Source: Isurus oxyrinchus (Eukaryota). From it: a stretch of DNA of 64,000 nucleotides. The position numbers and the translations under genes were made by a program. Under the pieces are notes generated by a model. The model was not told the DNA's origin and did no database searches. It saw nothing but the letters and a program-made list of their open reading frames with translations. Every line of letters starts with the position of its first letter. The stretch's first letter is position 1. The stretch covers positions 310,001 to 374,000 of the forward strand of contig JANJGN010000210.1 in NCBI GenBank assembly GCA_026770705.1, read 5' to 3'. Positions 11,325-54,839 of this stretch are shown here, one piece after another.

Positions 11325-11452
11325 CTTCGCCAGAGTGACGGCAGTGCTGTAGAAAATGCTCAGGAAGAACAGGATGATGAATGTGGAAGCGGTTGTCCAG
11401 ATGTTGCCGTTATCATCCTCAGAGTCTTCAATCCAGGTGCGGTCTGTGGAAT
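11325..11452 (-). CDS. IGHM: IgM TM1 exon
   Basis: cgtag|(G)AT...AAG|gtgaga; encodes DSTDRTWIEDSEDDNGNIWTTASTFIILFFLSIFYSTAVTLAK with the conserved antigen-receptor TM motif; phase matches the internal Cmu4 donor. Confidence 0.95.
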
Positions 11453-12019
11453 CTACGGGGATATAACCGAGCGGATAGAATTAGATTGTTTATTATCTTT
11501 TATCTTTTAAAAAATATTCTCTTTACTCTTTCCTAAGTTATTAATGTATTCTCTAATTTAATGTTCAATGTATATCTACTTTTAAGCTCGTGAATTTCAG
11601 CAACCTATCTCTGTAACTATCTCCACAGCTGTTCTTCCTTTACAATCCTCATACAGTCAGAGTCGCAAAATATGGAAAATTATCTCCAGTATCAGTTCTT
11701 TTTCGACCAATTTTGTACGATCTATTATTGGAGAATGTTATGATGGATAGCGAGAGAGATTCACTGAGCAACTTATTTGGAAACTGTGGACGTTGCTTTT
11801 TAAAATCTCGGCCGTGATTTCCCATCTTGTTTCTTTATTTGTTTTGGAAATGTTTGGTGCGTCATTAACTTAAATCAGTTTCTCAGTAAGAACATTGTTT
11901 CAGTGTGCTTTTTGCATCATTATGTAATAGGGACAACTTCCGGAGGATAAGTCGGTTAAAAAAGTACATTTGAGTTATACTTTGTTCAATAGCCTGGCGT
12001 TTGTGTCATGCTTTAGCTT

Positions 12020-14294: not shown

Positions 14295-14686
14295 TCATTG
14301 ACATGAATTAACGGTGTCCATCAGTGCAAGAGAAATATTCACAAAACTCGGTTTACCGCTGGATTTATCAACCGTTCTGTTGATGATCTTCAAGGGAATC
14401 GCTTCATGTCCCACCACACAGGAGTAAGAAGCGCCGCTGGCCCACTCCTCCGCTGCAATGGATAACAGGCTGTACATGAAGAAGGAGCGATTGCCGTTCT
14501 CCGCCACCACCTCGGTGTTCTTGTAGTTTCCGGGATTCACCGGCTTGTCATTGACGGTCCACTTGACGAAGATCTCTCGTGGGGAGAAACCTCTCACTAA
14601 GCAGCTGAGGGAGACGAACCTCTGAGCGGAGACATCTTCTGCCGAGGGCAGGAGGACAGACACGGATGGTTCCTGCGGATTTTTGT
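14295..14686 (-). CDS. IGHM: IgM Cmu4 exon plus secretory tailpiece
   Basis: ctgcag|(G)AC AAA...; encodes [19 protein letters not shown]...[16 protein letters not shown]...[43 protein letters not shown]. Internal donor G|GTAAAC after 14357 serves TM splicing; tailpiece has an N-glycan site and penultimate Cys. Confidence 0.97.
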
Positions 14687-14799
14687 CTGCAGAAAATGTA
14701 CAATAAATGTCAATAAACTGGATAATTTCGGAGACAATGAAACCACTGGTTAGGGTGAGGGAAGTGTTTTTGAGTTGAATAGTAAAGGTTTACATTATC

Positions 14800-15010
14800 C
14801 ACTTCTAGGAAATATATCGCCATTCCTTTACTGTCGCTGAGGCAAAATCCTGGAACTCCCTCCCTGACAACACTGTGCATGTACCTACACCACAGGGATT
14901 GCAGCGATTCAAGAAGTCAGCACACCACCACCTTCTCAAGGGCAATTAGGGATGGACAATAAACTCTGGCCCAGCCAGCGACGCACACATCCCATTAATT
15001 AATGAATAAA
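14800..15010 (+). mobile_element. L2/SINE 3' tail
   Basis: 'gggcaattagggatggacaataaactctggcccagccagcgacgcacacatccc', a tail shared with several copies in the window. Confidence 0.65.
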
Positions 15011-15393
15011 AATCTTTGGGATCTGATCGGTTTTCCAGCTCGGAGCAGAGGTGGATACAATTCTTTTCCCTGAGAACTTATGGGGTTGGACTAGAAAGTT
15101 TCTCAAAGTTTACAGCACAGAACAGGCCATTCGGCCCAACTGGTCTGTGTTGGTGTTTAAGCTCCACACCAGGCTCCTCCCATCTTTCTTCATCGAAATC
15201 CAAAAGCACAGCCTTCAATTCATTGCTCATTCATCTACTTATCAATTTCCTCCTTGAAGTCTGCAGGCCCAGAGCGTTTAGCTAGTGGAATTGCCAATCC
15301 GGGTAGACCATGAACACACTGAATAGTAAATATTGACCCTTACACTGGAAATAGACACAATGACTCACTTATTGTTTCAATCTCACCGCTCAC

Positions 15394-15702
15394 CTTGTTC
15401 CTTGTGGATGGAACTCCTTAAAGGAGTCGGCAGATCCTGATTGCTCACCACGCAGTAGAACTCAGCCCCACTCAGCCAGGCTTGTGTCGAGATGTTTACG
15501 TTGCTGACCACGCTGCCGGGATGCTCTCCCGGTTGGATGGCAATCTCTGATTTCAAAGGCTTCTTTTCTTGGGTCCAGGACACGAGTACTGGTTGATGAG
15601 CATCAGAAACAATGCAGGTTAAGGTCACGGTCGCTTCCAGCAAGACCTGTTCTATTGGCGGTGGCAGTAGAGTAATTGTGGCATCTCTGCAGTTGGAACA
15701 TT
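15394..15702 (-). CDS. IGHM: IgM Cmu3 exon
   Basis: ctcacag|(G)AA TGT...CAA G|gtgagc; 309 nt, phase 1/1; [30 protein letters not shown]...W...[22 protein letters not shown]. Confidence 0.96.
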
Positions 15703-16054
15703 CTGTGAGACAGAAATGAAAATCAACCAAAGTTTCACCATGAGAATCAGGACAGCAGTATTTAGTCTTCACTCTCCAGAGGACATTCGACATATCAACC
15801 TCTAACTATCGTCTGTAATCGTCTTTACACAATGCAAAACCAGCTTGGTCTGTGTAAATTGTTCTCATAATTTCAGTCGTTTAGCCCTGGAAACATTCTA
15901 GCAAACCTGTGTTGCCCCAGTCCCAATACAAATACACCATTCCCGGGCCCTGGAATGCAGTACTGAATGCCGCTTTATGAATAGGGTGGATGCACTTTCC
16001 AGCACTTTATTCCGAAGCTATTACCAGTTACTTTAATGGGTTTGTATCTCTTAC

Positions 16055-16342
16055 CAGACCCGGTGGTGTTTCGACTTAGGGTGACCCCTTGATGAGTGAC
16101 CTGACAGGTATAGACCGCGCCGGTGAACAATTCCCCAGCGGAGACTTTCAGCCGACTGGTCACCGAGAAGTTCCCGTTCATTTCAAAGACGGGAGAGGTG
16201 ACAATTCCTGAATTGATGGGTTGTCCATTCTTCAGCCACTTCACGGTGATTGGCTTTGGATGGAAATCGATGACTGAACAGACTACGGTATCTTCCCGGC
16301 AGCTTATGGTTAGGAGAACAGCTGGAGGGGGCATGTCAGTAC
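16055..16342 (-). CDS. IGHM: IgM Cmu2 exon (shortened, divergent)
   Basis: ttttaag|(T)GT ACT...TCT G|gtaaga; 288 nt; [40 protein letters not shown]...[20 protein letters not shown]. Confidence 0.95.
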
Positions 16343-16555
16343 CTTAAAAAAACACAGGTTAAACATTTCTTGCAGAAGAAATTGATAACAGATACAATGA
16401 GGTCCTATATTTTAACAGGCTTTTTCCGTTAACAGACAATAACCTGGATTTTTCAGGGATCAAAACTATGCAGAGCACTATAAATGCGTTACAACCAAGG
16501 CCCCATACAGGTTAGTCACAGCGTTTCTGTTTCTTAGAGGTTCCTCAACACTTAC

Positions 16556-16852
16556 ATGGCATTTCAATGCTCTTGTCTGAGCCGCTGTGTCGAACCTCAC
16601 AGTTGATATCGCATCCCCCCTCTGACTCGGTGATGGTTAACTGGCTGCTCAGGGTCAAGGTTCCCTTCTGGTTTCTCACTGACGGGTATGTCTGAAATCC
16701 AGTGGTGATCTGCTGCCCATCTTTCTTCCAGATCAGGCTGGTGATTTCTGGGGAGTAATCCATCGCCAAACAGCCGTAGGTGATGGAGCCGTCGGTGTTG
16801 TGTTGCTGACAGGAGGAGACCAGGCTGTAGAGAGTGGGCGAAGACGGTGTCG
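16556..16852 (-). CDS. IGHM: IgM Cmu1 exon
   Basis: ttcccag|(G)CG ACA...CCA T|gtaagt; 297 nt; [46 protein letters not shown]...[16 protein letters not shown]. Confidence 0.96.
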
Positions 16853-17224
16853 CTGGGAAAGAATGGCCGATCGAACACGTTAGACTCTGTGATTTGTGAT
16901 CATTAAGTAAGCAAACAACTCAAAAATTGACGATTAGTATAAACATATCCAAATATATTCCAACTAAAACCCACACCTACATTTGATCATTTATTATTTC
17001 CATCATTTGGTGACCCTCACCTGTCGGTTCCCTCTTTCGAAACCCACACCTCTTTATCCGCTTCTATCCAATTTCTGGAAGGCCCCTCCCCTCTCCACGT
17101 CCCCCAAAACAAAGAATATCAACGGCCCTTCGAAAGTACCTTTGTAATGGTACCTATATAATGACCATAGAACTCTAAATTAAATACTAGTAACAGTTAG
17201 TAAGACATTTTCCAATCGTATGTA

Positions 17225-18800
17225 CATATGAACATGCGGATCAGTAGCAGCCATTCGGCCTCTGGGGCCTCCTCCACCATTCACTCCAGTCATAGCTGAT
17301 CTGATTGTGGCGTGAACTCCACGTTCCCTCCAACTCTCCACTAACCTTTGACTCCCTTGTCAATGAAGAATCTCTCTACCTCTGCCTTGAAATATTAATG
17401 ACTCATCCTCCATCGCTCTCCGGGGAAGGGAGTTCCAAAGTTTCGCGACCCTTTGAGAGAAAAATAAAATCTCCTCATTTCCGTCTGAAATGAGAGACCT
17501 CTTCTTTTTAAACCGTGTTCCCTATCGTTAGTCTGTCCCCAAGGGGAAACATCCTTTCAGCATCTACCCTGTCAATTTCCCTCAGGATCTTATATGTTTC
17601 AATAAAATCAGCTCTCATTCTTCTAAACTCTAATGGATACAGGCCCAGCCTATCGAAACTTCCCTCATGAGAGATCCGATGACACCTCTCAGTATCATTT
17701 GAACGAACATTCTCTGAACAGCTTCTAATGCTTTTATATCCTTTCTTAAAGAAGACCAAATATGTACACAGTAATTCAGACAAGGTCTCATCAATGCCTT
17801 ATTAAACTGTAGCAAAACATCTTTACTTTTATATTCTAATCCCCTTGTAATAAATGCCAACACTCCCTTTGCCTTCCTCATCACTTGCTGTTCCTGCATT
17901 ATAACTTTTTGTGATTCATGCACCAAGGGATCCACATCCCTCTGTACCTCAGGGTTCTGCAATCTCTCTCCTTTTCAATAATATGCTGCTTTTGTATTCT
18001 TCCTGCCAAAGTGAACAAGTTTATATTTTGCCACATTATACTCCATCTGTCATTTTTTTACCCACTCACTGAACCTATCGATATCCCTTTGCTGACCCTT
18101 TATCCCCTTTTCACCAGTTACTTGCCTATCTGTCTTTGTGTCATCAGCAAATTTAGCAAATTCATTCAGTCCTTTCATTCAAGTCATTGATATAAATTGT
18201 AAATAGTTGAGGCCGCAGCATTGATCCCTGTTGCACTCCACTTGTCACATCTTGCCAACCTAAAATAACCAATTTATCCATGCTCTGTTTCCTGTTAGCT
18301 AACCAAACTTCTACCCATGCCTAAAATATTACTGCTGACACCATTATATTGTGCAGTAATCTTTGATGTGCCACTTTGTCAAATGCCTTCTGGAAGCCCA
18401 AATACAGCACACCCACAGGTTCTCCTTTATTCATGTTCCTTGTTACTTCCTCTAGAGGCCTCAAATAAGTCAGCCAGACATGATTTTCCTTTCACAAAAT
18501 CATGACGGGTTTGCATAATTGCATTTGAATTTTCTAAGTGACCCGTGATAGATTCCTTAATAATCGATTCCAGCATTTTTGCTCGGACAGATGTTAAATT
18601 AACTGGCCTGCAGGTTCTTGCTTTCCCTTTCCCTCCTTTATTTAATATAAAAGCCTCATTCTCTATTTCTAATCTGATCAGACCTTTCCAGAATCTAGGG
18701 AAATTTGGAAAATTAAAACCAATGCCTCTGCTATTTTAGTAACCACCTCATTAAGGCCAAAATATTTGTCCAACTTCTCTGCCCATTTCCTTATTTGCCA
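17225..18800 (-). mobile_element. CR1-type LINE, 5'-truncated and decayed
   Basis: Fragments 'EVQRDVDPLVHESQKV...KAKGVLAFITRGLEYKSKDVLLQ' and 'RLGLYPLEFRRMRADFIETYKIL'. Confidence 0.85.
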
Positions 18801-18947
18801 TTATTACGGGCTTTTCCAATCCATGTCACGTGGCTGGACTGTGCCCCCCCCCCCCCCCACCCCCCGAAGCCCCTCTATATGGCCCCCGGAGCCGTTGTTC
18901 AAAATGCTGGTAAGGCGGGTAAGTGGAATTGAAGATTTCAGTGAGGA

Positions 18948-19058
18948 GCTGCTCCTCCAATCACAGGCTGGTCTTCTACCCCGTTAGCTGCTGATAGGCT
19001 GAATAGCAGATCAGCAGTAAAAGTGGGAGACAAACAGGTTTGTGATTGGAGAGGCAGC
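18948..19058. repeat. Imperfect ~53-bp-arm inverted repeat with mirrored CCAAT boxes
   Basis: gctgctcctccaatcaca...ctgctgat / atcagcag...tgtgattggagaggcagc. Confidence 0.7.
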
Positions 19059-19284
19059 GAACACCCGCTGGAGAAAGGCACAGGGAAACGGGGGGAAGCG
19101 CACAGAGACATTATCTCCCTTCTATCGCAGGCACTGAGTGCCTTTCCCTGGGAATGGAAAGGATTTCAGGAGGGGGAGAGACAATGAAGGAGAGAGGGAG
19201 AGAGAGAGAGTGGGGCCCAGGGCATCTGGAGCCTTTGCTCGCAACTGCTTCCGCCCGGCTCTCCCTGCTATAAACTGGCTCTCA

Positions 19285-20955
19285 GCCCTTTCCCCCCCTC
19301 TGCCTCTCCCCTCTCCCACTTCCCTGCCCTTTCCCCCACCCACCTCTCTGCCCATTCCCCCTCCTGCCTCTGTGCCCTTTCCCCCTCCCGCCTCTCTGTC
19401 ATTCCCCCTCCCACCTCTCTGCCCTTTCCCCCTCCCACCTCTCTGCCCATTCCCTCTCCCGCCCCTCTGCCCTTTCCCCCCTCTGCCTCTCCGCTCTCCC
19501 ACTTCCCTGCCCTTTCCCCCACCCACCTCTCTGCCCATTCCCCCTCCCGCCTCCCTGTCCTTTCCCCCTCCCGCCTCTCTGTCATTCCCCCTCCCACCTC
19601 TCTGCCCTTTCCCCCTCCCACCTCTCTGCACACCCCACCCCCTGCTTCTCTGCATTGCCGCTTTGCCCTTCCCGACCCACCACTCTGCCCTTCACCCCCA
19701 CCTCTCTTCCCTTTCCCTCCTGCCTCTCTACCCTTTTCCCCCCTTGCATCTGTGCCCTTTCCCCCCTCCTCTCTGCCCTTCCCCCACCACCTCTCTGCCC
19801 ATTCCCACTCCCGCCTCTTTGCCCTTTACACCCGCCGCCTCTCTGCTCTTTCCCCCTCCTGCCTCTCTGCCCTTACCTCCCACCTCTCTGCCCTTTATCC
19901 GTCACCTCTCTGTCCTTTCTCCCCCAGCTCTCTACGCGCACTTCACTGCTCTTTGTGCTTTCTTCTGGCTCTCTGACCTTTTCCACTGGTTCTTTGCCCG
20001 TTCTCCCAGCTTGCTGCCCTTTCCATCCTCTGCCTCTCTGCCCTTTCTTGCCCCCCCCGCCTCTCTGCCCTTTCTCCCCTCTGTCTCTCTGTTCTCCCGC
20101 CTCCCTGCCCTTTCCCCCACTCACCTCTATGCTCTTTCTCCCTCCCACCTCTCAGCCCTTACCTCCCGCCTCTCTGCCCTTACCCCCTCGCCTCTCTGCT
20201 CTCCCGCCTCCCTGCCCTTTCCCCCACTCACCTCTGTGCTCTTTCTCCCTCCTGCCTCTCTGCCCTTAACCCCTCGCCTCTCTGGCCTTTTCCAAGCTCA
20301 TTGCCCTTTCCATTGACTCTCTGCCCTTTCCGTCACCTCTCTGCCCTTCCCCCTCTGTCTCTTTGCCCACCCTCCTCTCTGTCCTCCCCACCTCTGCCTC
20401 TCTGCCCTGCCTCCTCTCTGCCCTTTCCCCTTCCCACCTCTCTGCCCTTTCCCCCTACTGCCTTACTGCCCTCCCTCCTCTCTGCCTTTCCTCCACCCAC
20501 CTTCCTGCCCTTTCCCCCACTGCCTCTCTGCCATTTCGCCTCGTTACTCTGCCCGTGCCACCCCCCGTTTCTCTGCCCTGTCACCCCTCCACCTCTCTGC
20601 CCTCCCGCCTCTCTGCCCTTTCCCCCTCCCACCTCTCTGCTCTTCCCCCCCACTTCTCTGCCTTTTCTCGTCCAGCTCTCTGCTCTTAATGCAGGACTCC
20701 CTGTGCTTTCATCTGGCTCTCTGACCTTTCCCACTTGCTCTCTGCCCGTTCCCTGGATTGCTGACCTTTCCCCCTGCTCACTGACCTTTGCCCCATCCCA
20801 ATGCACTTTCCGCTGGATCCCTGCCCTTTTCCACCTCCCGGCTCTCTACCCTTCCCCCCCAACGCCCCCTCCCCTGGCTCTGTGCCATTTCCCTCGCCTC
20901 CCTGCCCTTTCCCCCAGGCTCTCCGAGCATTCCCCCCGCCTCCCTGCCCTTTCTA
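19285..20955. repeat. Polypyrimidine/polypurine minisatellite, ~24-bp unit, ~70 copies
   Basis: Unit cctctctgccctttccccctccca on +, TGGGAGGGGGAAAGGGCAGAGAGG on the IgM sense strand; 8-aa periodicity in the spurious ORFs. Confidence 0.92.
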
Positions 20956-21079
20956 ATAAAACTCATCGCTCCCTTCAGCCATGCTCCACTTTCCAGCACT
21001 GCTAGGCCTCAGGCCTCGCTTCCAGGTCTCTCTTCCCCACAGTTCCCACCTTCCCACACATCGATTTATGAAAAGTGAT

Positions 21080-21365
21080 CGAGTGAGTGAGCGTGTGCAT
21101 GATTGACAAAGTGAGAGTGGCTGAGTGACAGAGTGAGGGCGGGTGGCTGGGTGAGTGAGGATGCGTAGGTGAGTGAGGGTGGGTGATGAGTGGGCGTGGG
21201 TGAGGGTGTGAGATTGAGTACCTGTGAGTGAGTGAGGGTTGGCGAGTGAGGGTGATTGAGTGAGTGTGAGTGAGGGTGAGTGAGTGAGATTGAGTGAGGG
21301 TGAGCGATTGTGGGTAGTGAGGGTGAGTGAGTGAGTGAGGGTGAGTGATTTTGGGTAGTGAGGGT
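21080..21365. repeat. (GTGA/GAGG)n simple repeat
   Basis: Direct inspection. Confidence 0.85.
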
Positions 21366-21921
21366 GCCCAGGTGCTGCAGGCTCATCAAGGCGATGTTTC
21401 TCTGGATGATTTTCTGCTCCGACTCAGCTTTCTGTTGCCAGTTGTCCACAGCCGAGCTGGGGGCTCCTCCATTCGGCTCCACCACCTCCACCTCCTCCTC
21501 TTCCTCTCCATAGATCCTGTCCTGATTCTCCATATTGATCAGCTTTCAGTAACACCGGCTGTGTAAAGTCTGGCAGCAGTGTAGATCACTGGCCGGCTGC
21601 TTTAATGCTGATGCCTTTCTTTGAGAAACCCGTGTCAGTGCGTGAATAGGCAGACTGAGGGGGCTGGAGGGGAAGGTTACAGCAAAACCAAGATGGGCCG
21701 TGCAGGCATCTTGCACCAAGTGTGCACCAGTATTGGGGATCCAGGTGGCTGTGGTCTCCACCCTCCCTTTTTCTTGTTTCTTTGTGTTTGGTTCAACACT
21801 TGGAAATTCTGCACATATATAGTGATGTCACCTGTGTAATTTCATTTTACACAAAAAGGCATCGGAAATGGAACAATGAACATGCCTGCAGCTTAACGGA
21901 TCTTCTTTCTGAAATTAGCAT

Positions 21922-22141
21922 NNNNNNNNNNNNNNNNNNNNNNNNNNNNNNNNNNNNNNNNNNNNNNNNNNNNNNNNNNNNNNNNNNNNNNNNNNNNNNN
22001 NNNNNNNNNNNNNNNNNNNNNNNNNNNNNNNNNNNNNNNNNNNNNNNNNNNNNNNNNNNNNNNNNNNNNNNNNNNNNNNNNNNNNNNNNNNNNNNNNNNN
22101 NNNNNNNNNNNNNNNNNNNNNNNNNNNNNNNNNNNNNNNNN
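21922..22141. other. Assembly gap (220 N) inside the JH-Cmu1 intron
   Basis: Run of n. Confidence 1.
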
Positions 22142-22762
22142 AAGTGTCATAGGGAGTATAAGCGTGAGAGTGTCTGAGGGAGAGAGCATGTGTGAGAGAG
22201 AGAGTGAATGTGTTTGTGTGTGTGTGAGAGAGAGAGTGTAGGGGTGTGAGTGATATGTAGTATAAGTGTGTGAGAGAATGTGCGTGTGGGAGAGAAAGAG
22301 TGTGTGAAAGAGAGAGCCAGTGTGTGTGTCAGAGAGAGAGTGTGTGTGTGCATGAGAGAGAGAGAGAGAATGAGAGTGAGTATGTGTGTGAGAGGAACAG
22401 TGTGTGTGTGTGTGTTTGTGTGAGGGAATGTGTTTGTGTTTCTGTGTGCGTCAGAGAGAGAGAGAATGAGGATATGTGTGTGTGTGTGAGAGAGTGTTTT
22501 GTGTCTGTGTGTGAGACAGCGGGGGAACTGAGAGTGTATATGTGTGTGTGAGAGAGAGAATGCATGTGTGAGAGTGCATGTGTGAGAAAGAAAGATTGCA
22601 TGTATGTGTGTGGGAGAAAGTGTGCACGTGTGTGCGCAGTTGAGAGAGTATGTGTATGAGAGAATGTGAGCGTCTGTGTGAGAATGTGTGTGAAATAGAA
22701 AGGCAATGTGTGAGAGACAGAGTGTGTGCGTGTTAAAGGGAGTTTGTGTGTGAGAGAGCGAA

Positions 22763-22795
<33 letters not shown>

Positions 22796-22920
22796 CAGAG
22801 AGAGAAAGAGAGAGTGTGTGTCTGCCACAGAGAGTGCATGAGAGAGTGTGTGTGCATGTGTATGAGAGAGAGCCTGTGTGACAGAGAGAGTGAGCTAGTG
22901 AGGGTGTGTGGTAAAGAAAC
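22142..22920. repeat. Compound (TG)n/(GA)n microsatellite
   Basis: Direct inspection. Confidence 0.9.
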
Positions 22921-23759
22921 TGAGTGTATCGAGATAGATCAGCCATGATCTTGCTGAATGACGGACAGGATCGAAGGGCCGAATGTCCTCCTCATGCTCT
23001 CATTTCTGTAATTCATTCCTCTCCCTGCAGGCGGCAATCCAGTGGCTCAGTTTTTGATGGTGGCTCCTTTTCCCCAAATCCCCCGTGGCTGGTTATTTGG
23101 AGTGGGAGTCTGGTCATTGTCCATTCCAATTGTTCAAATATCTCGCAGCCTCTGATCCAATCAGAACTGGCGCTGCTTTCTGGAGCCTCACTGTCACTCC
23201 CTGATTCTGTTTGTTCTGAAATTGTGCTCAAGTTCAGCTCACTCACGTTCAATGGTTTTCTGATACTCAAAATGCTTAAACATAATTAATTTATTAAAAT
23301 TTATGCATGTTCTCTCCAGAAATATTGTTAAAAATAATTAACGTGTGTTATTTCAACTGAGCAATGGAACAACTTATTTTCACAGATCCGGCTCGAAAAA
23401 CCATGGCCAGTTAGTTCGATGTTGATTCAGTTTGTCTGACCTCTGCAGGGAGAAGACTCCCAGGTCAGGAACAGGACAAGTTAAGATATGGATTAAATTC
23501 CCCACTCCTCCCCCAGTACGCTCCTGTCACCAGCTGCAAGGGTGGGATTCAACAGAAAGCCAACTCTCCACTGAACTGTCAAACACTCCGGGGCAGGTGC
23601 AGCACTGGTTTGACATAAAATAAAACTCTCTCTACATTGTTCCATCAAATATGCCCAGGAGATAGTTCAATCCGATTTTGATATCAGTGCTGTGCTGCAG
23701 GAGCCGGTCAGAGGCTGGGAATTCTGTGGCGAGTAATTCAACTCTTATTGCCCAAAGAA

Positions 23760-24280: not shown

Positions 24281-27200
24281 AATAAGATTTCTTCCTCCGC
24301 CTTGTCCAACCAAATAGGTCAAGGACTGCTACAGCACGGATTAAAATAGGATAAAACTCTCTCTGTATTGCCTAACTGAACACTCCCAAAACAGAAACAT
24401 CACTGGCTTGAAATCAACCAAATCTCCTTCGACAGTCTGTCTGTCATTTCTGAATTGTCCTTTCTGACTGTCACAATGGGTTGGGCATCTCATTTCTGAG
24501 GCGCCTGGTCAAAAAGTCAAACTTTCACATCTCTCACAAATACAAGATTTGTGAAGAAATAAGTCGAACTGCACTTCCCGAAATATAGGAGAATGAAGGT
24601 TAACAACCAGTCAGGAAGATTCCTGGTCCCAGCACAGTGACCACGCACACAGAAACAGAACAGACACAAATGGTGCAACATTCGAGTTCCCAGCAGATAG
24701 ATCTGTTCAATCTGTCCATTTCACTCAAGCTGTTTGATTCTAATTGATCAATGGTCCATTTGTTACAATTATTCTATAACTTCTTTGAAATTAAACTGAT
24801 TTTCATTTCAAAACTCCCTTTGAATTCCATTTAATTCTCCGTCTGAGTCAAATCTCCAAACAATGTACGATTTAAGTTACCCTGAAAATGAGCACAGCAA
24901 ATACTACAGATTCAGGATATTTGGTTGTCCGTAATAAAGACTCAATGACAGAGTAAGAATTAAACAAATCAGGAAACATTCACATTGAAAACTGATTACC
25001 TACTGATTTCATTTGATTTTAGCTATAAATATATCCAATCAAAACATCAACACATTATCGAGCTGAGCACAGCTGAATAAGAAAAGTATTCTTTTCTGAA
25101 TTCATTTTGGATACAATTCAAAATTCTCTCCACCCTTTGAGATTTTGCATTCACTATAATGTCCAATATACTATTTAATTGTTGGACTTCATATATGTTG
25201 AATTAATTATCACTAATATTATATTGTAAGTTAATTATCTTGTTATTGTCAATTCATTTTCTTGTTAGCTGATTTCTACTTTATAATGAAAATAATTTTC
25301 AATGATTGAAAATTTGTTTCTCCTTGGTACTTTGTGAAATAATTGAGGTTTATTTAAATCAACCTGACACTGAAACAATGTTAAACAATATACTTCAAAT
25401 TACTAGATGGTAACATTCAGGGAAGTATATCAATTTTACTTAAATCTGATCAATATTTACTATTTTATTTTTACTTCTCATGCTCTGTTTTAACAGACAA
25501 AATTATAAACTATGCGTTTCTGAACAAATTGAGAAATCATAAATTCCATCTATTCTCATCAAGCAATTCACATGACGAATTTATGAGTTGAATATTTGAA
25601 ACACTTTCAACTCTGACCGGGGTCACATCGCATTAACTGTCGATGAGGTGTAATATCACCTGTTTGCTGAATTAAACTTGCCTTAACTCCAAGTTATATG
25701 TAAACAAATCTTCCTGGCAGTTACTTAATATCAATAAAATTGCTTCCTAGATAACAATCCCTATAATTTATTGTTAATTATATTGTTCACTGAAAGAAGA
25801 TCCAAATTGATCAGTATAAAACTTGATGAGAACAATTCATTCAGATCATCTGCACCACTAAAATATAACATGCAAATTGATTCCAGATTTTGTCCTTCAA
25901 TTTAATATTTAATAAGAATTAAGCATGAATCTCAGATATAATCTGTTCTTCTCCTATAATTCTATTCTGTGTACAGCACAGCAATGGGAGACAGGATGTT
26001 GTTGTTAAGTACAAAACTAATACTAATGTTTGCAATTAATCTGTTCGAATTTCAAGCTTTTACTTGTCAATCTCTATTTATCTGCTGTCTGCACCTTCTT
26101 ACAGTTTAAAAAAATGCAAGAACAATTCCTTTATTGCCAGCGAATTATACCCCCCATTAAACTGTTTAAAATTAGATTAGTGACAATTATCTCGCTATTC
26201 AAATCCCAATGACATTGAAGGAATAATGTGGTTACGGCTGCACAGAAAGAATGTGATAACCGAAAAGACATATTGCCAAACTGCAATAACAAACTCATCT
26301 AAGTCAAGGCAAATGTTATCAGGGACATAAAAAAGTAATTCAAAATCTCGTCTGAAACTGAACAATTCTGTAGAATCAGTATATTCTTACTGAGATTTTT
26401 TCATGCATAATCACAAAATGTTTCCAGCCTAAAAACTTTCCCGATCATGTTAATTGTGCGCAGAGCACAGCAGAATTGTGAAAGCCGATTAATGATCAAT
26501 TAGGTTAATATGAAAGCTGCTCCATCAATATGGAGAAATATTAACACATTATAATCGTTTGAATTGTATTAACTTTACTGTACAATTTGAAAACTTGGCA
26601 ATTGTATAGTTTCTAAATGCAGTAACGAATTATGTTCTGAATGAGCGTCATAATCCATGGTTTAGTTTATTCTGCAATTACACTTAAAATAAAGACAAAA
26701 TGTGCTAACACATCTGTAAATGCTTTTTTTGCCCATTTCTGAAACCTGTCTGTTTTCTGCCTACAATCGCGCTTCATGCAGATACAAACGCGTAGGCTGC
26801 TTCGATTCAATCGCAAAACGTGTAACCGCTCAATGTGACCGAGTTTAAACAAAGCAGAACCGCCAAACCTTTTCATAAATTCAACTAATTCAAAGTCACC
26901 CAGACACACAATCTCCTCAGCAGAAAAACACCAAATCACGTCACTGAGGGGCTGAAACCCGTTTCAAGGAGAAGCAGTTCAATTCTACAAACACTTCCAA
27001 CAGAATTCATTGCAACATTGCAGGAAAATCTCAATGTCGAATCCAGGCAATCCGCTCGTCAGCAAATGTATGAATTATTAAACTAAACAGAAATATGGAA
27101 TAATGTCAACAGCATTGTGAGTAGGCGGAACATATTCAATGAATTTATATTGAAATTTAAGCACATTTTGTTAATATTGGGTTTGATTTCAAACCTATTT

Positions 27201-27565
27201 AAACCATTGTGCAACAGATGGTAAAACCCGCAGCCATTAGATGTTACCGAGATTAAACATTGCAGAAACGTCAAACTGTTCTAACAAACGTTAGATATTT
27301 TAAGTAGCCCGACCACACATTATCCTCAGCAGACAAACACCAAATCACAACAACCAGGGACCGAATCCTTTAGCAGCGCTATTTATCAAGACACAGCGGA
27401 ATCATATAATTCAATTTAAGCAGAATCACATGAAATATTGTAAAAAATTCTGCATACAGAATCCACCAAACCCAGGTTTCATTGGCTGAATTAATTATTA
27501 AAATAGACAAAAAACAAAGCAAAGACTCAAATAAAACAGTTAGTAAATAAATGTGTAGTTCTTAC

Positions 27566-27613
27566 CGGCAGTCACCGTCATCATGGTCCCTTGGCCCCAG
27601 TAGCCCATACCGT
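27566..27613 (-). CDS. IGHJ: JH segment (germline)
   Basis: AC GGT ATG GGC TAC TGG GGC CAA GGG ACC ATG ATG ACG GTG ACT GCC G|gtaag = GMGYWGQGTMMTVTA. Confidence 0.96.
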
Positions 27614-27652
27614 CACAGTGTTACATTCCCTGGGCTGTGCCATACAATAACT
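27614..27652 (+). other. JH 23-RSS
   Basis: CACAGTG (27614-27620), 23-nt spacer, ACAATAACT (27644-27652). Confidence 0.92.
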
Positions 27653-27982
27653 GTCCCTGCAGCAAAAAGACAGAAATCCACCATTATTTTAAATATTCAT
27701 AAGTCAGAGGCAAAGCGAGGTCACGATGAATCTTCACGAAATTATATTTGCGTTTGTAGATATCTTTGGCTATTCATCAATGATCCTCATCTTTTATAAT
27801 TCACAGAATAACACATGAACATGTTATTGAATTCACCAACTGATGAATGGGTAATTATCACAGCTTTTCCATCTTAAACCATGTTTTTGTGGGCATTGCT
27901 GGACAGAAATAATACTTCACTGTACATATAGTTGGATTGTAAAAGCGAGCACTGACCCAGGCAGACTCAATTAGTGCTGAGG

Positions 27983-28010
27983 GGTTTTTGTATTGACAGT
28001 AACTGCTGTG
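27983..28010 (-). other. D2 3' 12-RSS
   Basis: Minus strand: CACAGCA (28010-28004), 12 nt, ACAAAAACC (27991-27983). Confidence 0.92.
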
Positions 28011-28023
28011 CCATCCAGTATAT
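28011..28023 (-). CDS. IGHD: DH2 segment ATATACTGGATGG
   Basis: 13 nt flanked by 12/12 RSSs; all three forward frames open (IYWM, YTGW, ILD). Confidence 0.92.
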
Positions 28024-28051
28024 CACAGTGAGACACACCATGTCAAATACT
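28024..28051 (+). other. D2 5' 12-RSS
   Basis: CACAGTG (28024-28030), 12 nt, TCAAATACT (28043-28051). Confidence 0.88.
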
Positions 28052-28360
28052 GTGGCAGACTGTTAACTGTAAATACAGAGATTTAATTTCACTGCGCTCT
28101 CAAAAACCTGATTCCGACTCGCTTAAGTGTGAATCAGTGAGATATTTCAGCCTGTGCTGGTCATTATATTTTAAATGTGACTGGAGGTCTTTAAAAGCCT
28201 CTGTGAAGATTTAGCGTGTCCGTAAACACAAACAAAGCAGAATACTTTTATATATTTTTGCAAACCAATATTACTTATACCCATTATTTTATTTAGCTCC
28301 CATTTTCTTTGACTTTTCCTGTTGTGATCGTGATCACCAATTTGAACAAACTCCTTCTGA

Positions 28361-28398
28361 AGTTTTTGTATGAGGATGTCGCTGTGCACAGCACTGTG
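28361..28398 (-). other. D1 3' 22(23-type)-RSS
   Basis: Minus strand: CACAGTG (28398-28392), 22 nt, ACAAAAACT (28369-28361). Confidence 0.92.
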
Positions 28399-28411
28399 AC
28401 CCCCGTAGTAT
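28399..28411 (-). CDS. IGHD: DH1 segment ATACTACGGGGGT
   Basis: 13 nt flanked by 12/22 RSSs, the classic shark D1 layout; frames ILRG, YYGG, TTG. Confidence 0.93.
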
Positions 28412-28439
28412 CACAGTGAAATACACCCGCACAAAAACT
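28412..28439 (+). other. D1 5' 12-RSS
   Basis: CACAGTG (28412-28418), 12 nt, ACAAAAACT (28431-28439). Confidence 0.94.
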
Positions 28440-28809
28440 GCACCCACTCTCTGTTCAGTGCTGCCTCGCAATATTTACTTCAAATAGACGTTTACTTCTG
28501 ATCTAGTTTAGTATTTATGCAGCAATTTACAAAACTCAATGAATAGTGATCCCGTCCAAGTATCAGACATATTAAAATGAACATTATATCTATGTCTGTA
28601 ATTGCGGAAACTGTTAACAGTAAATGTAAGCACAGCCAAAAGCTCAGCCCATTATATCAATTGGTTTGTTAGGTTTTACAGTTAAATTTGCTGCTTTACT
28701 TTTGTCAGAAGCGACTTGTTGTCGGGTTCTGATCATTACAGTTAATATTACATTTAAAACAAGTACTGACCATCAGGTTACGATGGCAGTTGTTGAGTTT
28801 CTCTCGATC

Positions 28810-28848
28810 TGTTCTTGTTCGGGTCCAGCCCTGGTTCCTCTCGCTGTG
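28810..28848 (-). other. VH 23-RSS
   Basis: Minus strand: CACAGCG (28848-28842), 23 nt, ACAAGAACA (28818-28810). Confidence 0.92.
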
Positions 28849-29153
28849 GTTTCTTGCACAGTAATAGATGGCGGTGTCTTCAGTCTTCAGGTTCGTCATG
28901 TCCAAGGAGAAGATGTTCCTTGAAGTGTCTTTGGACGCAGTGAATCGATTCTTAATTGCTGGGGCATAGTTGTTGCTGGATGAACTATAGTAGAAAACCA
29001 GCCACTCCAGCCCCTGTCCGGGAACCTGTCGGACCCAGTACATGTCGTAGCTGCCAAGATCGAAGCCGCTGGTTTTACAGGTCAGTCTCAGGGAGCCTCC
29101 GGGACGCCCGGTCTCTGCCTCTGGCTGAGTCAACACAACCCCCGACTGGACAC
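28849..29153 (-). CDS. IGHV: VH exon (germline, open)
   Basis: tttacag|GT GTC CAG...; [53 protein letters not shown]...[33 protein letters not shown]; both Cys and the Trp are present. Confidence 0.97.
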
Positions 29154-29280
29154 CTGTAAAAATATATCAAAAACCCCGAGGATTAATCCTGGTGAAATGA
29201 TTTCTGACTCTAACATTCCAGAGAGAGACTAACACTGAGACAGTAACAGTGAGATACTTGGACAATAAAAAACTACTCAC

Positions 29281-29338
29281 GGGATAAGAAAGTCAGCAAC
29301 AAACTGAGAGAAATCGCCGACCTCATCGTTTTGGTCAT
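29281..29338 (-). CDS. IGHV: VH leader exon
   Basis: MTKTMRSAISLSLLLTFLS + C|gtgagt (phase 1); a second in-frame ATG at 29326. Confidence 0.93.
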
Positions 29339-29414
29339 TTGGGGAAAATGGTTCTGTCCAGAACTCAGTGCACAAACCAGCTCCCGGACTGCTGGATTCC
29401 GGCCCCAGTGAGCG

Positions 29415-32377: not shown

Positions 32378-32630
32378 AATTATTAATCTTTGTGAATGGA
32401 TGATAATTTCTGAACTTAATTATTTGTCTTGTGAATTGATGGTAATTGGTGAATATAATTATTTATATTTGTGGGTTAATGATAATTGGTGAATATAATT
32501 ATTTATCGTTGTGTATTGATGCTAACTGGTGAACATACTTATTTATCTTTGCGAATTGATGATAATTCTTGAATATAAGTATTCACCTTTGGGAATTGAT
32601 AAAGGTTGGTGTTGATAATTATTTGCCTTT
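32378..32630. repeat. AT-rich 40-bp minisatellite, ~6 copies
   Basis: ttatttatctttgtgaattgatgataattggtgaatataa with ~40-nt period. Confidence 0.85.
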
Positions 32631-38740: not shown

Positions 38741-39339
38741 GGTGTCAATATTGCTGCTCTCCACCGTGTCTCTGTTAATATTACACTCAGCCTATCTCAT
38801 TGTTACTGCTCTAGTCCGTGATTCTGTTTCTGTAATACTAGATCCTGTCTCAGTATTGCTGCTCTCCACCATGCCTCTGTTTGTCCTACACTGGGCCTGT
38901 CCCATTGTTACTGCTCTAGTCTATGTTTCTGTTTCTGTAACATTGGACTCTGTCTCAGTTATTGCTGCTCTCCACCATGTCTCTGGTAATATTTTACTGG
39001 GCCTGTCTCTTTGTTACTGTTCTAGTCCATGTTTCTGTTTCTGTAACATTAGGTCCTGTCTTAGATATTTATGTAATTGTCCTCTGTTTATATTACATTA
39101 GTATATTCCCTTACTTTATTGCACTAGAGCCTGAAAATAGGAGTTAAATGGTTTAATTTAAACAGCTGCAATATAAGAGAGGTCTGTGGATCATGAACAC
39201 AAATCTGGGATGCAGGAAGGACAAGTCATAACATCTAAACAGGCCCCCATGTTAATTGCTCCCACCATCTTGCTGCCTTATCTTCACTATTTCCACCCCA
39301 GCCAATTTCCACATTATGGCACGTGTGTAGTGCAGTAAT

Positions 39340-40130
39340 AACAGAGGCAGGGTCTAATGTAATTTAAATACAGATATGATCTAGCACAGAACTGAGACAG
39401 TGGCTACTGAAATACAGAGACAGTTCTAGATGAATATATACAGAGACAGGTCAATTATAATATAAACAGAGACAAGGCCTTGTTTAATATAAGCAAAGAC
39501 AGGATCTAGAGTAATATAAACAGAAACGGGGTCCAGTTTAATATAAATAGAGACAGGGTCTAGTGTATTATAAACATACAGAGCCCAGTTTAATATAAAC
39601 AGTGGCATGACCTTGTGCAATATAAACAGAGACCGGATCTAACGTAATATAAACAGATACAGCGTCTAGTGTAAAATAAACAAAGGCATGTCGAGTATAA
39701 TATTAACAGAGACATGCCGAGTGTAATATAAACACTGACATATCAAGTGTAATACAAACAGGGGCAGAGCCTAGTATAATATAAACAGAGACACGGTCTA
39801 ATGTAATGTAAACCAAAATAGAGATCAGTGCAACATAAACAGAAACAGGGTCTAGTGTAATATAAACCAGGGCAGGGCCTAGTGCAATATAAACAGAGAC
39901 AGCGTCTCATGCAATATAAACAGAGGCATGTCGAATATAAGGAGACATGTTGAGTGTCATATAAACACGGGCAGGGCCAAGTGCAATGTAAACAGAGACA
40001 CCATCTAGTGCAATATAAACAGATACATGTCAGATGCAATATAAACAGGGACAGGGCCTAGTGCAATACAAACAGAGGCAGGGTTAACTGTAATATAAAC
40101 AGAGACAGGGTCACGGTCGAAAGCAATATC
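39340..40130 (-). repeat. Monomeric 27-bp satellite tract, inverted relative to the main array
   Basis: ctagtgtaatataaacagagacagggt repeated; reverse complement of accctgtctctgtttatattacactag. Confidence 0.9.
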
Positions 40131-41135: not shown

Positions 41136-42932
41136 TAATCCATTTCATTTGATCAATTTAGTTTGAAGTGTATGAATCGGGCTGAGAAAATATATTGGCT
41201 AGACATTGACTTCATGGTGTGGAGTAAAGACAGTGACCCATGGTGGAGAGACAAGACAAAGTACCAGAGAGGAGAGACAGAGAGAGAGAGAGGATACAGG
41301 ACATCCCTACAAACACATTTGCCATGACATTATATTTCATGATCAGTGGGAATCTTACTTAATTCTGAACATAGATATCATCGTGACATAATTCTCATAT
41401 AACTGATTTTAAAAATGCCCAAAAAAATTGCTACTGAAATCGGTTGATGTATTTGCATGTTTGACTCTATTTCTGTGCTGTGTTGATGGGGAAATATTTG
41501 CTGTGCTTTTGTGTATCCAGAATCTAATCTGGGACTTCTATTTCTGTGTTTATTTACATAAACGCCTCATTGGTTTCAATGAAGTGTTCATGGCAGCAAA
41601 ACCAGATAAACATAGACACTTATTGATTGGGTTCAACTCAAAACAAGGGTTTATTTTAAGAATATTGACAGTTGGTACAAAATTACTAGAAACCTTTTCA
41701 ACATCCATTAGAACAGATGTTATTTATTTCAAATAATTAAAAATACATTTAAATTAATAATTCAATTCTGAAAGTGCTACCGTCACAATCAATGATGAAT
41801 ATTTGAACAGGCTGGGATTAGACTCAATGTCAATTTGTTGGAAGATTTAACTGATTAAAAATGGACAATTTAAAACAGCAGCCACAGAAGTGACCTATAA
41901 TCATATTAATCTCAGAGTTTTCAACATATCACAACTAGCATTTTGAAATGTTAACATTTAGGAAGAATTTACATTTATAGAACGCAGCTTATGACCCCAG
42001 GACATCCTAAAGCCCTTGAAATTCGTTGATGTACATTTGTTGAAGTTTTGTCACTGCTGTGATATTGGAAATCCATCCGGTGATTTGTGCACAGCAAGCT
42101 CCCACGAATAGAGCTGTGAAAAATGATGAGATAATATGTGATTTTAGTTGAAGAATGAATACGGGACTAGGACAGTGGGGAGAACATTCCTGCTCTATAG
42201 ATTGGTACTAAGGGAGATGTTGCACCTGTCATCGGCCTGAACATTTGACCTGTCCCTCTCTCTATTGATGCCCACTAACCTGCTGAGTGGTTATTTTTTG
42301 CCCTGCCTTAGATTTCCCAAACCTGCAGTATTTTGCAGTGTTTTAATTCGTTCTTGGGATATGGCGTCAATGATGAAGTAATTCTTGCACTTGGCCCTGT
42401 CTCAGTTTATTCTAGTCCAGACCATATATCAGGAATCACTGCACTAGACACTGTCTCAGTTTATATTAATTTAGACCCTGTATCATTAATCGCTGCAGTG
42501 GACCCTGTCTCAGTTTACATTAATCTAGACCCTGTGTCAGTCATCTCTGCACTGGACATTGTCTGAGTTTGTATTAATCTACACCCTGCATCAGTAACCA
42601 CTGCACTAGGCCCTGTCTCTGTTTATATTAATCTTGACCCTGTATTAGTAATGACTGCTCTAGGCCCTGATTCAGTTTATATTAGTCCAGACCTTCTAAC
42701 AGTAATCATTGGAAAGGACACTGCCTCAGTTGATATTGATCCTGATCCTGTATCATTAATTCCTGCACTAGCCTCTGTCCTAGTTTATAATAATCTCGTC
42801 CCTGTGTCAGTAATCACAGCACTCGGCCCTGTCACAGTTTGTATTAATCTAGATTCTGTGCCAGTAATCACTGCACGAGACGCTGTCTCCCTTGATATTG
42901 ATCTAGACCTGTATCAGTAATCAGTTTATATT

Positions 42933-44010
42933 ATCACAGAATCACACAGTGCAGAAGAGGCCCTTTGGCCCATCGAGTCTGCACCGACACGTGAAAAACA
43001 CCTGACCTACCTGCCTAATCCCATTTATCAGCACTTGGCCCATAGCCTTGAATGTTATGACGTGCCAAGTGCTCATCCAAGTACTTTTTAAAGGATGTAA
43101 AGCAACCCACCTCCACCACCCTCCCAGGCAGTGCATTCCAGACCATCACCACCCTCTGGGTAAAAAAGTTTTTCTTCAAAAGCCCCCTAAACCTCCTGCC
43201 CCTCACCTTGAACTTATGTCTCCTTGTGACTGACCCTTCAACTAAGGTCAACAGCTGCTCCCTATTCACCCTGTCCACACCCCTCAGAATCTTGTACACC
43301 TCAATCAGGTCTCCCCTCAGTCTTCTCTGCTCCAATGAAAACAACCCAAGTCTATCTAACCTCTCTTCATAACTTAAATGTTTCATACCAGGCAACATCC
43401 TGGTGAATCTCCTCTGCACCCTCTTCAGTGCATCACATCCTTCCTATAATGTGGCGACCAGAACTGCATATGGTACTCAAGCTGTGACCTCACCAAGGTT
43501 CCATACAAGTCTAATATGGCCTTCCTACTTTTGTAATCTATGCCTCGATTGATAAAATCAAGTGTCCCATATGCCTTTTTCACCACCCCACTAAGATGCC
43601 CCTCCGCCTTCAGAGACCTATGGACACACACGCCAAGGTCCCTTTGTTCCTCAGAACTTCCTAGTGTCATCCCATTCATAGTCAAATTACTCCTTCCAAG
43701 GTATATCACCTTGCACTTTTCAGTGCTACATTCCATTTGCCACTTATCTGCCGATTTGACCATTCCATCTATATCTTCCTGTAGCCCAAAACACACAACA
43801 TCACTGTTAACCAACTGGCTAATCTCTGTATCCTCCGCAAACTTACTAATCCTACCCCACATGTAGGCATCTACTTTCATTTATATAAATAACAAATAAT
43901 CGGGGACCCAGCACAGATCCCTGTGGTACACCACTGGACAATGCCTTCCAGTCACTAAAGCGTCTTTCTGTCATCACCCTCTGTCTCCTACAACTAAGCC
44001 AATTTTAGAA
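42933..44010 (-). mobile_element. CR1-type LINE inserted in the satellite
   Basis: ORFs 'ISKFAEDTEI...LQEDID...WQM...KC' and 'QRRFTRMLPGMKHLSYEERLDRLGLFSLEQRRLRGDLIEVYKI'; possible TSD ttatatt (42926-42932 / 44011-44017). Confidence 0.9.
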
Positions 44011-53000: not shown

Positions 53001-53152
53001 GTTTATTTTAGTCCAGACACTGTAACAGTGATCATTGCACTAGCCCCTGCCCCAGTTTATATTTATCTAAACCCTGTATCAATGATCACTGCACAATGCC
53101 CTGTTTCAGTTTACATCAAGCCAGAGCCTGTATCAGTAATCGCAGCACTATA

Positions 53153-53507
53153 ATAAAAGCAAAAAAACTGTGATGCTGGAAATCCAAAACAAAAACAAAA
53201 ATACCTGGAAAAACTCAGCAGGTCTGGCAGCATCTGGGGAGAGAAGCACAGTTAACATTTCGAGTCCGCATGACTCTTCAACAAACTAAGGAAAAATAGA
53301 AAAGGGGTGAAATATATCTTATTAGCTTATATCCCACCACCACCACCGCACCCCCCCCCTACTTAAACCAGCTTATATTTCACCCCTTTTCTATTTTTCC
53401 TTAGTTCTGTTGAAGAGTCATGTGGACTTGAAATGTTAACTGTGTTCCTGTCCCACAGATGCTGCCAGACCTGCTGAGTTCTTCTAGGTAATTTTGTTTT
53501 AGTTACT
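53153..53507. mobile_element. Palindromic Penelope-derived element with hammerhead motif
   Basis: ~125-bp inverted arms; perfect 11-bp TSD gcagcactata (53142-53152 / 53508-53518); agtt-CTGTTGA-a-GAGTC..GACTT-GAAA at 53403-53433. Confidence 0.85.
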
Positions 53508-54486
53508 GCAGCACTATACCCTGTCTCAGTTTATATTAATCAAGACCCTGTATCAGTAATCACTCTACTGGACACTGCCTTCGTTTATATTGATCTAGAT
53601 CATGTATCAGTAATCACTGCACTTGGTCCTGTCTCAGTTTATGTTAGTCTAGATCCTTTATGAGTAATCATTGCATTAGCCCCTGCATCAGTTTATATCA
53701 ACCTAGATCCTGTATCAGTAATCACTGCACTGGACACTGTCCTAGTTTATTTTTTATCTCAGCCGGCTATGAGTAATCACTGCACTATGGCTTGCCTCAG
53801 TGTATATCAGCCTTGACCCTGTATCAGTAATCATTGCACAGGGCATTGAGTGAATTTATATTGATCAAGATCCTGTATCTATAAACACTGGACTAGACCC
53901 TGTCCCAGTTTATATTAATCTAAATCCTGTGTCTGTAATCACTGCACTAGCCCCTGTCTCTGTTTATATTGATCTAGACCCTGTGTCAGTATTCATTGTA
54001 CTAGACCCAGCATCAGTTTATATCAATCTAAACCCTCGAGCAGTGATCACTGCACTTGGCCTGTCTCAAGCTCTATTAACCTAGACCCTGTGTCAGTAAT
54101 CACTGCACTCGACCCTATCCCAGTTTATATTGATCTAGACCATGCATCATAATCAGTGCAATGGACACTGTCTCATTTTATATTAATCTAGGCCCTGTAT
54201 CAGTAATCACTTCTCTATGCCATGCCTCCATTTTTATCAATCCATATCCTGTATCAGTAATCACTGCACTAGACCTTAACTCAGTTTATATTAGTCCAGA
54301 ACCTGTATCAGTAATGATAGAACTCAATACCTCCGTTTATTTTAGTCCAGACACTGTAACAGTGATCATTGCACTAGCCCCTGCCCCAGTTTATATTTAT
54401 CTAGACCCTGTATCAATGATCACTGCACAATGCCCTGTTTCAGTTTACATCAAGCCAGAGCCTGTATCAGTAATCGCAGCACTATA

Positions 54487-54839
54487 ATAAAAGCAAAAAA
54501 ACTGTGGATGCTGGAAATCCAAAACAAAAACAAAAATACCTAGAAAAACTCAGCAGGTCTGGCAGCATCTGGGGAGAGGAGCACAGTTAACATTTCGAGT
54601 CCGCATGACTCTTCAACAAACTAAGGAAAAATAGAAAAGGGGTGAAATATATCTTATTAGCTTATATCCCACCACCACCACAACCCCCCTCCCACTTAAA
54701 CCAGCTTATATTTCACCCCTTTTCTATTTTTCCTTAGTTCTGTTGAAGAGTCATGTGGACTTGAAATGTTAACTGTGTTCCTCTCCACAGATGCTGCCAG
54801 ACCTGCTGAGTTCTTCTAGGTAATTTTGTTTTTGTTATT
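54487..54839. mobile_element. Duplicate of the 53153 element
   Basis: Same arms, TSD (54476-54486 / 54840-54850) and flanks, at an offset of 1334 nt. Confidence 0.85.

Follow-up and report, generated by a model that had tools for sequence, protein, structure and literature searches.

A G-rich, switch-region-like array in a shark IgM intron is probably a minisatellite carried by an old hAT transposon

The intron between J and Cmu1 of a shark IgM cluster contains a G-rich tandem array that resembles a mammalian switch (S) region, and the question is whether it belongs to that family or reached this site by another route. Shark Ig loci are described as having no S regions, and nurse shark V regions switch between clusters, from IgM to IgW and back, alongside hypermutation, as summarized in PMC4279169, PMC4588147, PMC8201067 and PMC5192425. 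At abstract level, with subscription papers mostly outside its scope, the literature search returned no account of an array in the introns of shark IgM genes that is G-rich or carried by a transposon. We consider it quite probable that an old non-autonomous hAT (Buster-like) transposon harbours the array as a minisatellite, that the array was multiplied together with one IgM subfamily, and that it is a passenger there; the eye-catching S-like tract would then be explained without a shark switch region.

The array and its IgM cluster

The window, that is, the whole 64,000-nt stretch of Isurus oxyrinchus DNA analysed here, carries one IgM cluster on the minus strand, and the cluster, array and transposon features described below all lie on that strand. 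The cluster comprises a leader and VH exon with a 23-spacer RSS (28810–29345; VH open within the V-set frame 28708–29166, RSS at 28848), two D segments with RSSs (27975–28450; RSSs at 28010, 28398 and 28412), a JH segment with a 23-spacer RSS (27560–27650; heptamer at 27614), the C1-set exon Cmu1 (16551–16874), Cmu2 to Cmu4 with the secretory tail (14298–16343; four C1-set exons counting Cmu1), and a transmembrane exon near 11400 (approximate bounds 11330–11490). Human IgM mu chains were among the best matches of the Cmu2–Cmu4 region and among the best solved matches of the last C domain and secretory tail, with the tail covered. A related heavy-chain domain of this genome shares 96% identity with a protein of Carcharodon carcharias, as expected if the animal is a lamniform shark. 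The array ends 2.4 kb 5' of Cmu1, where the initial annotation had placed it within an IgM cluster, and begins approximately 6.6 kb 3' of J.

Other tandem repeats were observed upstream of VH. Approximately 14 kb of a 54-bp (2 × 27) satellite occupies 42386–57064, related 27-bp arrays lie at 38748–40112, and an A/T-rich 40-bp repeat is present at 32378–32600, the same unit being found in locus L052 (9010–9342).

The array itself (19285–20955) consists of 1671 nt in units of approximately 24 bp, and TRF called period-24 arrays at 19279–20953. The IgM sense strand, which is the minus strand of the window, is 84% purine and 53% G with a GC skew of 0.70; it contains 61 GGCA and four AGCT sites, and RGYW occurs once per unit, at twice the window background. 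Self-similarity reaches 91% identity at an offset of 183 nt and 79% at an offset of 748 nt. These values agree with the initial annotation, which had described approximately 1.7 kb of 24-bp units with extreme purine skew, one GGCA per unit, rare AGCT and internal duplications at about 180 and 750 nt. Its description of three G-runs per unit and continuous G4 potential stands in part. Three runs are present in the consensus, but among 42 individual units of 20–27 nt, three runs of at least three G were found in 10 and two runs in 20. The mean G4Hunter score is 1.27, with 62% of 25-nt windows at or above 1.2, but the array contains eight canonical G4 motifs against 10.9 ± 2.4 in mononucleotide shuffles, which is no excess.

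A QmRLFS-like scan, with its concept from PMC6125637, predicted an R-loop-forming sequence at 18350–21055 (minus strand), the sole long sense-strand tract in the window, and it predicted no long tract in eight of eight array-less loci. The S-region-like position, polarity and predicted R-loop/G4 potential proposed at first reading are upheld. One of 14 random 10-kb stretches had a G4-prone tract, of 907 nt; tracts of this kind are uncommon, though not rare. A 35-mer from the array occurred 16 times in 4.98 Gb, each time on a contig holding the array-bearing IgM subfamily, and its reversed control occurred zero times, so the repeat is more than a chance pattern. A looser two-unit pattern gave 583 matches, and among the 100 matches listed, 19 lay in different simple repeats on contigs C2, C5 and C13.

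A dispersed hAT element around the array

The array lies inside a non-autonomous hAT (Buster-like) element. The right arm of the element (18807–19284) is approximately 70–83% identical to dispersed copies, and its terminal repeat ends at 18807. Beside this terminus is one 8-bp half of the target site (18799–18806), with TA at positions 4–5; its partner is absent, and the left end is lost. The J-side part (20956–22935) starts with a short unique linker, followed by a C/A-rich tandem repeat (21085–21366), a 550-nt segment matching the dispersed copies, and a CA/CT microsatellite, which was assigned to the element by analogy with those copies. The end of the element adjoins a decayed, RT-like LINE remnant (17221–18798, minus strand), presumably CR1, that is repeated elsewhere in the window and whose RVT_1 match (E=0.01) is below the Pfam cut-off. 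An 18-bp inverted repeat holding CCAAT boxes, 75 nt apart, was observed inside the right arm at 18948–19058.

DNA searches using the array or its flanks, with the best 40 candidates scored, returned Ig paralogs only, and the dispersal was detected by a protein-mode search. The translation of 21366–21761 matched the Ig paralogs and gave decayed matches on 17 other contigs, so that J-side flank matches outside Ig were located on C1–C5, C8, C10, C11, C13–C16, C19, C24, C29, C31 and C118. We fetched 19 non-Ig copies first and 25 more later. Both flanks were present in the same order in several of the 19, with unit motifs at just 0–2 per 10 kb. The copies end in a common terminus of approximately 15 bp, and TA occupies positions 4–5 in 18 of 24 terminus-adjacent 8-mers (p ~1e-14). 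These 8-mers were obtained from 17 of the later-fetched loci, one with a poor terminus match, and from seven of the first 19; eight more loci had no detectable terminus. The copy on C15 (G000:C15:53180819-53200053) has both termini, which agree by eye at 13 of 15 letters, and is flanked by an identical 8-bp duplication; the copy L123 has both ends, yet no clean target duplication.

Short terminal inverted repeats (TIRs) at both ends, as in the C15 copy, an 8-bp nnnTAnnn target, and dispersed copies with sharp common ends are the characters of a hAT element. Human MER/Charlie fossils are elements of the Buster/Charlie group of hAT transposons, and judging from its ends and targets, the shark element would fall in the Buster subgroup. 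The target of TcBuster is given as an 8-bp nnnTAnnn consensus in PMC3499496, and TIRs of 14–16 bp are given for Buster elements in PMC12637253. The non-autonomous elements of this group (TcBuster, SPIN) are like the shark element in their TIRs of approximately 15 bp, their 8-bp nnnTAnnn duplication and their dispersed decayed copies, but the shark element differs from them in its three internal tandem repeats, each of which expands on its own, to as much as 15.7 kb. The dispersed copies, their termini and the 8-bp duplication on C15 bear out the caveat, raised when the array was first described, that it might be a transposon-borne minisatellite. At the IgM site, however, only the right terminus survives, at 18807; no left terminus was found in the window or in the fetched IgM paralogs, and the loss of this terminus and of the full target duplication speaks against the transposon account at this site.

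Several other identities were considered for the element and rejected. An LTR was suggested by the TATA-like box (19269), CCAAT boxes and AATAAA (20956) on either side of the array, but the TATA-like word differs among paralogs, and the dispersed copies have inverted repeats at their ends and 8-bp targets. A Harbinger element was rejected because the target is 8 bp. A captured gene in 21366–21761 was rejected because of stops and frameshifts in the paralogs and dispersed copies, together with the lack of a Pfam match. When the J-side part was analysed in four frames, no Pfam match and no transposase were found.

The dispersed copies carry a G-rich seed of approximately 100–250 nt (214 nt in L108; L116, L120 and L123 have short tracts of a similar kind). 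Within 1.5 kb inside the right arm, 24 of the 25 further non-Ig copies have a G4-prone tract of at most 272 nt, and one has expanded to 15.7 kb. The latter array (G000:C15:53181254-53196943; L178 and L179) is composed of a 20-bp unit inside the full-length hAT copy on C15 and shows a strong G skew, a G4Hunter score of 1.57, AGCT at 40.7/kb and WGCW at 43.9/kb; the 90 kb around it gave no match to the VH and four CH domains of the window. An exact two-unit C15 pattern gave 157 matches, and all 100 of the matches listed fall in the C15 array. If this array lies in a transcribed gene, it might be an off-target of AID. The C15 and IgM units have one core in common, which is followed by AGCT in 397 of 506 C15 units vs 62 of 1404 IgM units; AGGC (588) and AGGT (242) prevail after the core in the IgM units. 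Some copies expanded the neighbouring C/A-rich repeat instead, to more than 5 kb in L126.

The hAT family therefore yields long arrays of skewed composition at unrelated sites, and the one that most resembles Smu is outside Ig genes. Because the array of the C15 copy, at a non-Ig site, is much closer to Smu than the IgM array is, S-likeness emerges without Ig function, which is a warning that it can come by chance: one transposon family has produced both the IgM arrays and a 15.7-kb non-Ig array with AGCT in most units. Against the reading of the IgM array as a passenger, expansion of the seed outside Ig is rare (one of the 25 further copies), and the outcome at the IgM site is not the usual one. 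Seeding of minisatellites or satellites by transposon-internal repeats is known (PMC4079207, PMC7004042). In Tetris of Drosophila virilis (PMC4079207; also PMC7004042), as in the shark element, the tandem unit of a mobile element expands in some copies. Unlike in Tetris, duplication of Ig clusters afterwards multiplied the shark expansion, and a sister expansion resembles Smu in its GAGCT/GGGG composition.

Distribution among clusters and behaviour in the germline

A search of the genome with Cmu1 was scored for 150 of 429 candidates, and two IgM subfamilies were found among the scored matches, 61 at 76–100% identity and 50 at approximately 64–72%. The first subfamily, which includes the window, is located on C26 and several unplaced contigs. 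We fetched 10 kb upstream of Cmu1 for 39 of the 60 other first-group loci and for 21 of the 50 second-group (group II) loci. The array unit motif was present on the sense strand in 35 of the 39 and on the antisense strand in none, so the array is neither unique to the cluster of the window nor randomly dispersed in both orientations. It was found in none of the 21 group II loci, 17 of which include J, so that their whole intron was covered. No array was found in three IgW and seven IgNAR-like loci, where the scan reached 9.7 kb 5' of the first C domain, or in five loci that we take from their sequence to be light-chain loci and two other C1-set genes; the longest G4-prone tract in this set was 489 nt. 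Recurrence of arrays of the same polarity in other clusters, which the initial annotation had proposed as a check, was seen in the first IgM group but not in the sampled group II IgM, IgW or IgNAR-like loci. Two loci from the Cmu1 search, L191 and L197, are multi-C1-set genes that are not IgM and resemble neither the IgW domains nor the IgNAR-like ones.

The four first-group loci without the array are L052, in which the block is deleted, L053 and L056, which have divergent introns of approximately 72% identity, and L059, a Cmu1 fragment with stops. In the Cmu1 tree, the first subfamily forms a well-supported side of a branch (100/100) with no resolution inside it; for L053 and L056, the tree is compatible with the block having been lost or never having been present and does not settle between them. 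The array flanks are homologous among the array-bearing clusters, so the common polarity would most simply reflect a single inherited insertion rather than repeated enrichment. The junction at 18807 is bridged in two related species (records 18714–19026 and 18710–19026 in organism B; 18739–18914 and 18767–18914 in organism C), and these junction spans indicate that the transposon insertion is older than the splits of those species.

The flanks of the window are 99% identical to those of L023 (G000:C26:35.45 Mb), and the two arrays are 70 nt apart in length. At least 36 array-bearing clusters (arrays of 0.2–3.3 kb) and at least 24 array-less clusters coexist in this one genome, which is a natural experiment on the targeting of inter-cluster switching in sharks, although the contig of the window may be an alternate haplotype of L023 and the counts on unplaced contigs may thus be inflated. 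Signs of germline-joined segments were also seen among the clusters, namely D–D in L052 and L057, V beside J in L056, and D beside J in L032 and L062.

The 36 arrays range from 225 to 3347 nt, with a median of 1580 nt, and array indels exceed the flank rates in eight of eight near-identical cluster pairs, although alignment within repeats is uncertain. With a unit between 10 and 60 bp, length variation between near copies and an excess of indels, the array has the features of a minisatellite (VNTR). The initial annotation had put the region forward as a candidate for being recombination-prone, and in the germline this was not supported. Block-wise distance correlations showed no drop across the array, and four-gamete incompatibility was 0.17–0.21 for array-spanning vs 0.17–0.22 for same-side comparisons (17 clusters with all blocks, 499 sites; a homoplasy baseline of approximately 0.18 and modest power), giving no sign of a germline recombination hotspot across the array. 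Among the 36 fetched paralogs of the same intron type, 34 retain at least 650 nt of array, and the flanking blocks have been deleted many times. This retention speaks against a passenger, as weak evidence of selection, since a short flank can be lost entirely more easily than a long array. Deletions are also somewhat commoner just downstream of the array: in a hand count of independent deletions, eight of 12 lay in the 2.2 kb there (p=0.08).

These deletions also bear on a side effect without a switch role, in which the array would be a site of fragility or pausing, making germline deletion and duplication more frequent among neighbouring clusters, or would alter how the IgM transcript is elongated and processed at its 3' end. 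The array shows high indel turnover, and several deletions end in or at it (L026, L031, L036/L044 and L057). However, the downstream excess reaches p=0.08 only, coverage on the J side is bounded by the 10-kb fetch, the J side is possibly under constraint, and incompatibility does not rise across the array. We regard such an effect as very unlikely.

Switch-region features and AID hotspots

Mammalian Smu, Sgamma and Salpha are, like the array, G-clustered tandem repeats with a G-rich non-template strand, and they share with it a place in the J–C intron upstream of Cmu. They span 2–12 kb, as given in PMC5485518, a range that the array comes near, and R-loop and G4 formation is predicted for it. 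Xenopus Smu is also comparable, being a repetitive J–Cmu intron tract in an ectotherm. Two features that characterize S regions were found here: a tandem repeat of 1–12 kb in an intron 5' of a CH gene (1.67 kb, 2.4 kb from Cmu1) and, as a prediction, R-loop/G4 potential on a G-clustered non-template strand (skew 0.70, G4Hunter 1.27, R-loop-forming sequence 18350–21055).

Two defining features were not found. The first is a two-strand density of AID hotspots, as AGCT, WGCW and WRCY were at or below the window and random controls. AGCT was present at 2.4/kb in the array and 2.7/kb in 36 arrays pooled vs 0.3–5.4/kb in 14 random 10-kb stretches, WGCW at 14.4/kb vs 8.9–30.3/kb in the same stretches, and WRCY on the displaced strand at 6.6/kb vs 27/kb in the window. 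The second is an array upstream of both donor and acceptor CH genes (0/21 group II IgM, 0/3 IgW, 0/7 IgNAR-like). Because neither of these two defining features was found, the array is not a member of the S-region family; by prediction, it resembles the R-loop/G4 half of an S region. The differences from mammalian S regions also include its transposon origin, its absence before the other isotypes and the second IgM subfamily, and a setting of shark clusters rather than a translocon.

A possible use of the array in switching has to be weighed against these results. In mice, an artificial G-rich cassette of 1 kb restored switching in part and in an orientation-dependent manner, and the density of hotspots and the strength of R-loops together gave the best switching efficiency, as stated in PMC5485518. 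Of this recipe, the array would carry the R-loop half only. By analogy, the cassette rescue speaks against a mere passenger, as does the lack of any other long R-loop tract predicted on the sense strand of the gene. The transposon-born array might be a co-opted switch-like element, an R-loop/G4 platform at which polymerase stalls and AID is recruited and which, through its homology between clusters, promotes inter-cluster VDJ switching in the subfamily. The size of 1–3 kb, the G4Hunter score, the R-loop prediction, the partial support of class switching by G-rich cassettes in mice (PMC5485518) and retention in 35 of 39 paralogs are consistent with this; polarity and position are right as well, but the polarity depends on one inferred insertion, the array lies approximately 6.6 kb 3' of J, and no germline hotspot was found.

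In AID chemistry, a sense-strand RGYW has its target C on the transcribed strand. The RGYW sites of the array, although there is one per unit at twice the window background, are of this kind, AGCT and WGCW are not enriched, and the unit that expanded is the variant without AGCT. Inter-cluster switching is reported for nurse shark (PMC4279169, PMC4588147), but switching between IgM and IgW goes both ways there without S regions (PMC4279169), and in the present genome none of the sampled IgW, IgNAR-like or group II IgM loci carries the array. Taken together, we find co-option unlikely. Less likely still is the fuller version, in which a transposon with a GAGCT–GGGG seed gave one lamniform IgM subfamily a G4/R-loop platform focusing AID-driven inter-cluster switching; if true, a transposon would have made a switch-like region independently, and the shark array would be a living model for a possible origin of tetrapod S regions from a transposon-borne minisatellite.

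For the preferred reading, a minisatellite passenger in a hAT copy, the following history is proposed. The host is the dispersed element described above, with terminal inverted repeats, 8-bp nnnTAnnn targets and a short G-rich seed. One insertion into the J–Cmu intron of an ancestral IgM cluster would have placed the G-rich strand in the sense orientation by chance, probably before the radiation of the IgM subfamily and the split from the two related species. A seed variant without the AGCT palindrome (mostly AGGC/AGGT) would then have expanded to 0.7–3.3 kb by slippage or unequal exchange, as the length spread and the indel excess suggest, and duplication of clusters, which the homologous flanks show, has carried the array to at least 36 of them. 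IgM transcription is predicted to generate R-loops and G4 in the array. With few displaced-strand AID hotspots and few two-strand WGCW sites, the array is nevertheless predicted to yield few switch breaks.

Position, polarity and size class had also suggested an ancient proto-switch region, homologous to the S regions of tetrapods. Descent of this kind is extremely improbable: the array sits inside a transposon copy approximately 70–80% identical to dispersed copies, it is confined to one IgM subfamily, and the intron stretch that both subfamilies have in common is a different one (24462–24678). The proto-switch proposal of the initial annotation, understood as homology by descent, is therefore not sustained.

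The non-coding element at 24462–24678 (minus strand) is common to both IgM subfamilies, being found in 53 of 60 loci, and is the only mid-intron stretch conserved between them, at approximately 70% identity, which makes it a candidate intronic enhancer. It is partly deleted in L029, L037, L038 and L043.
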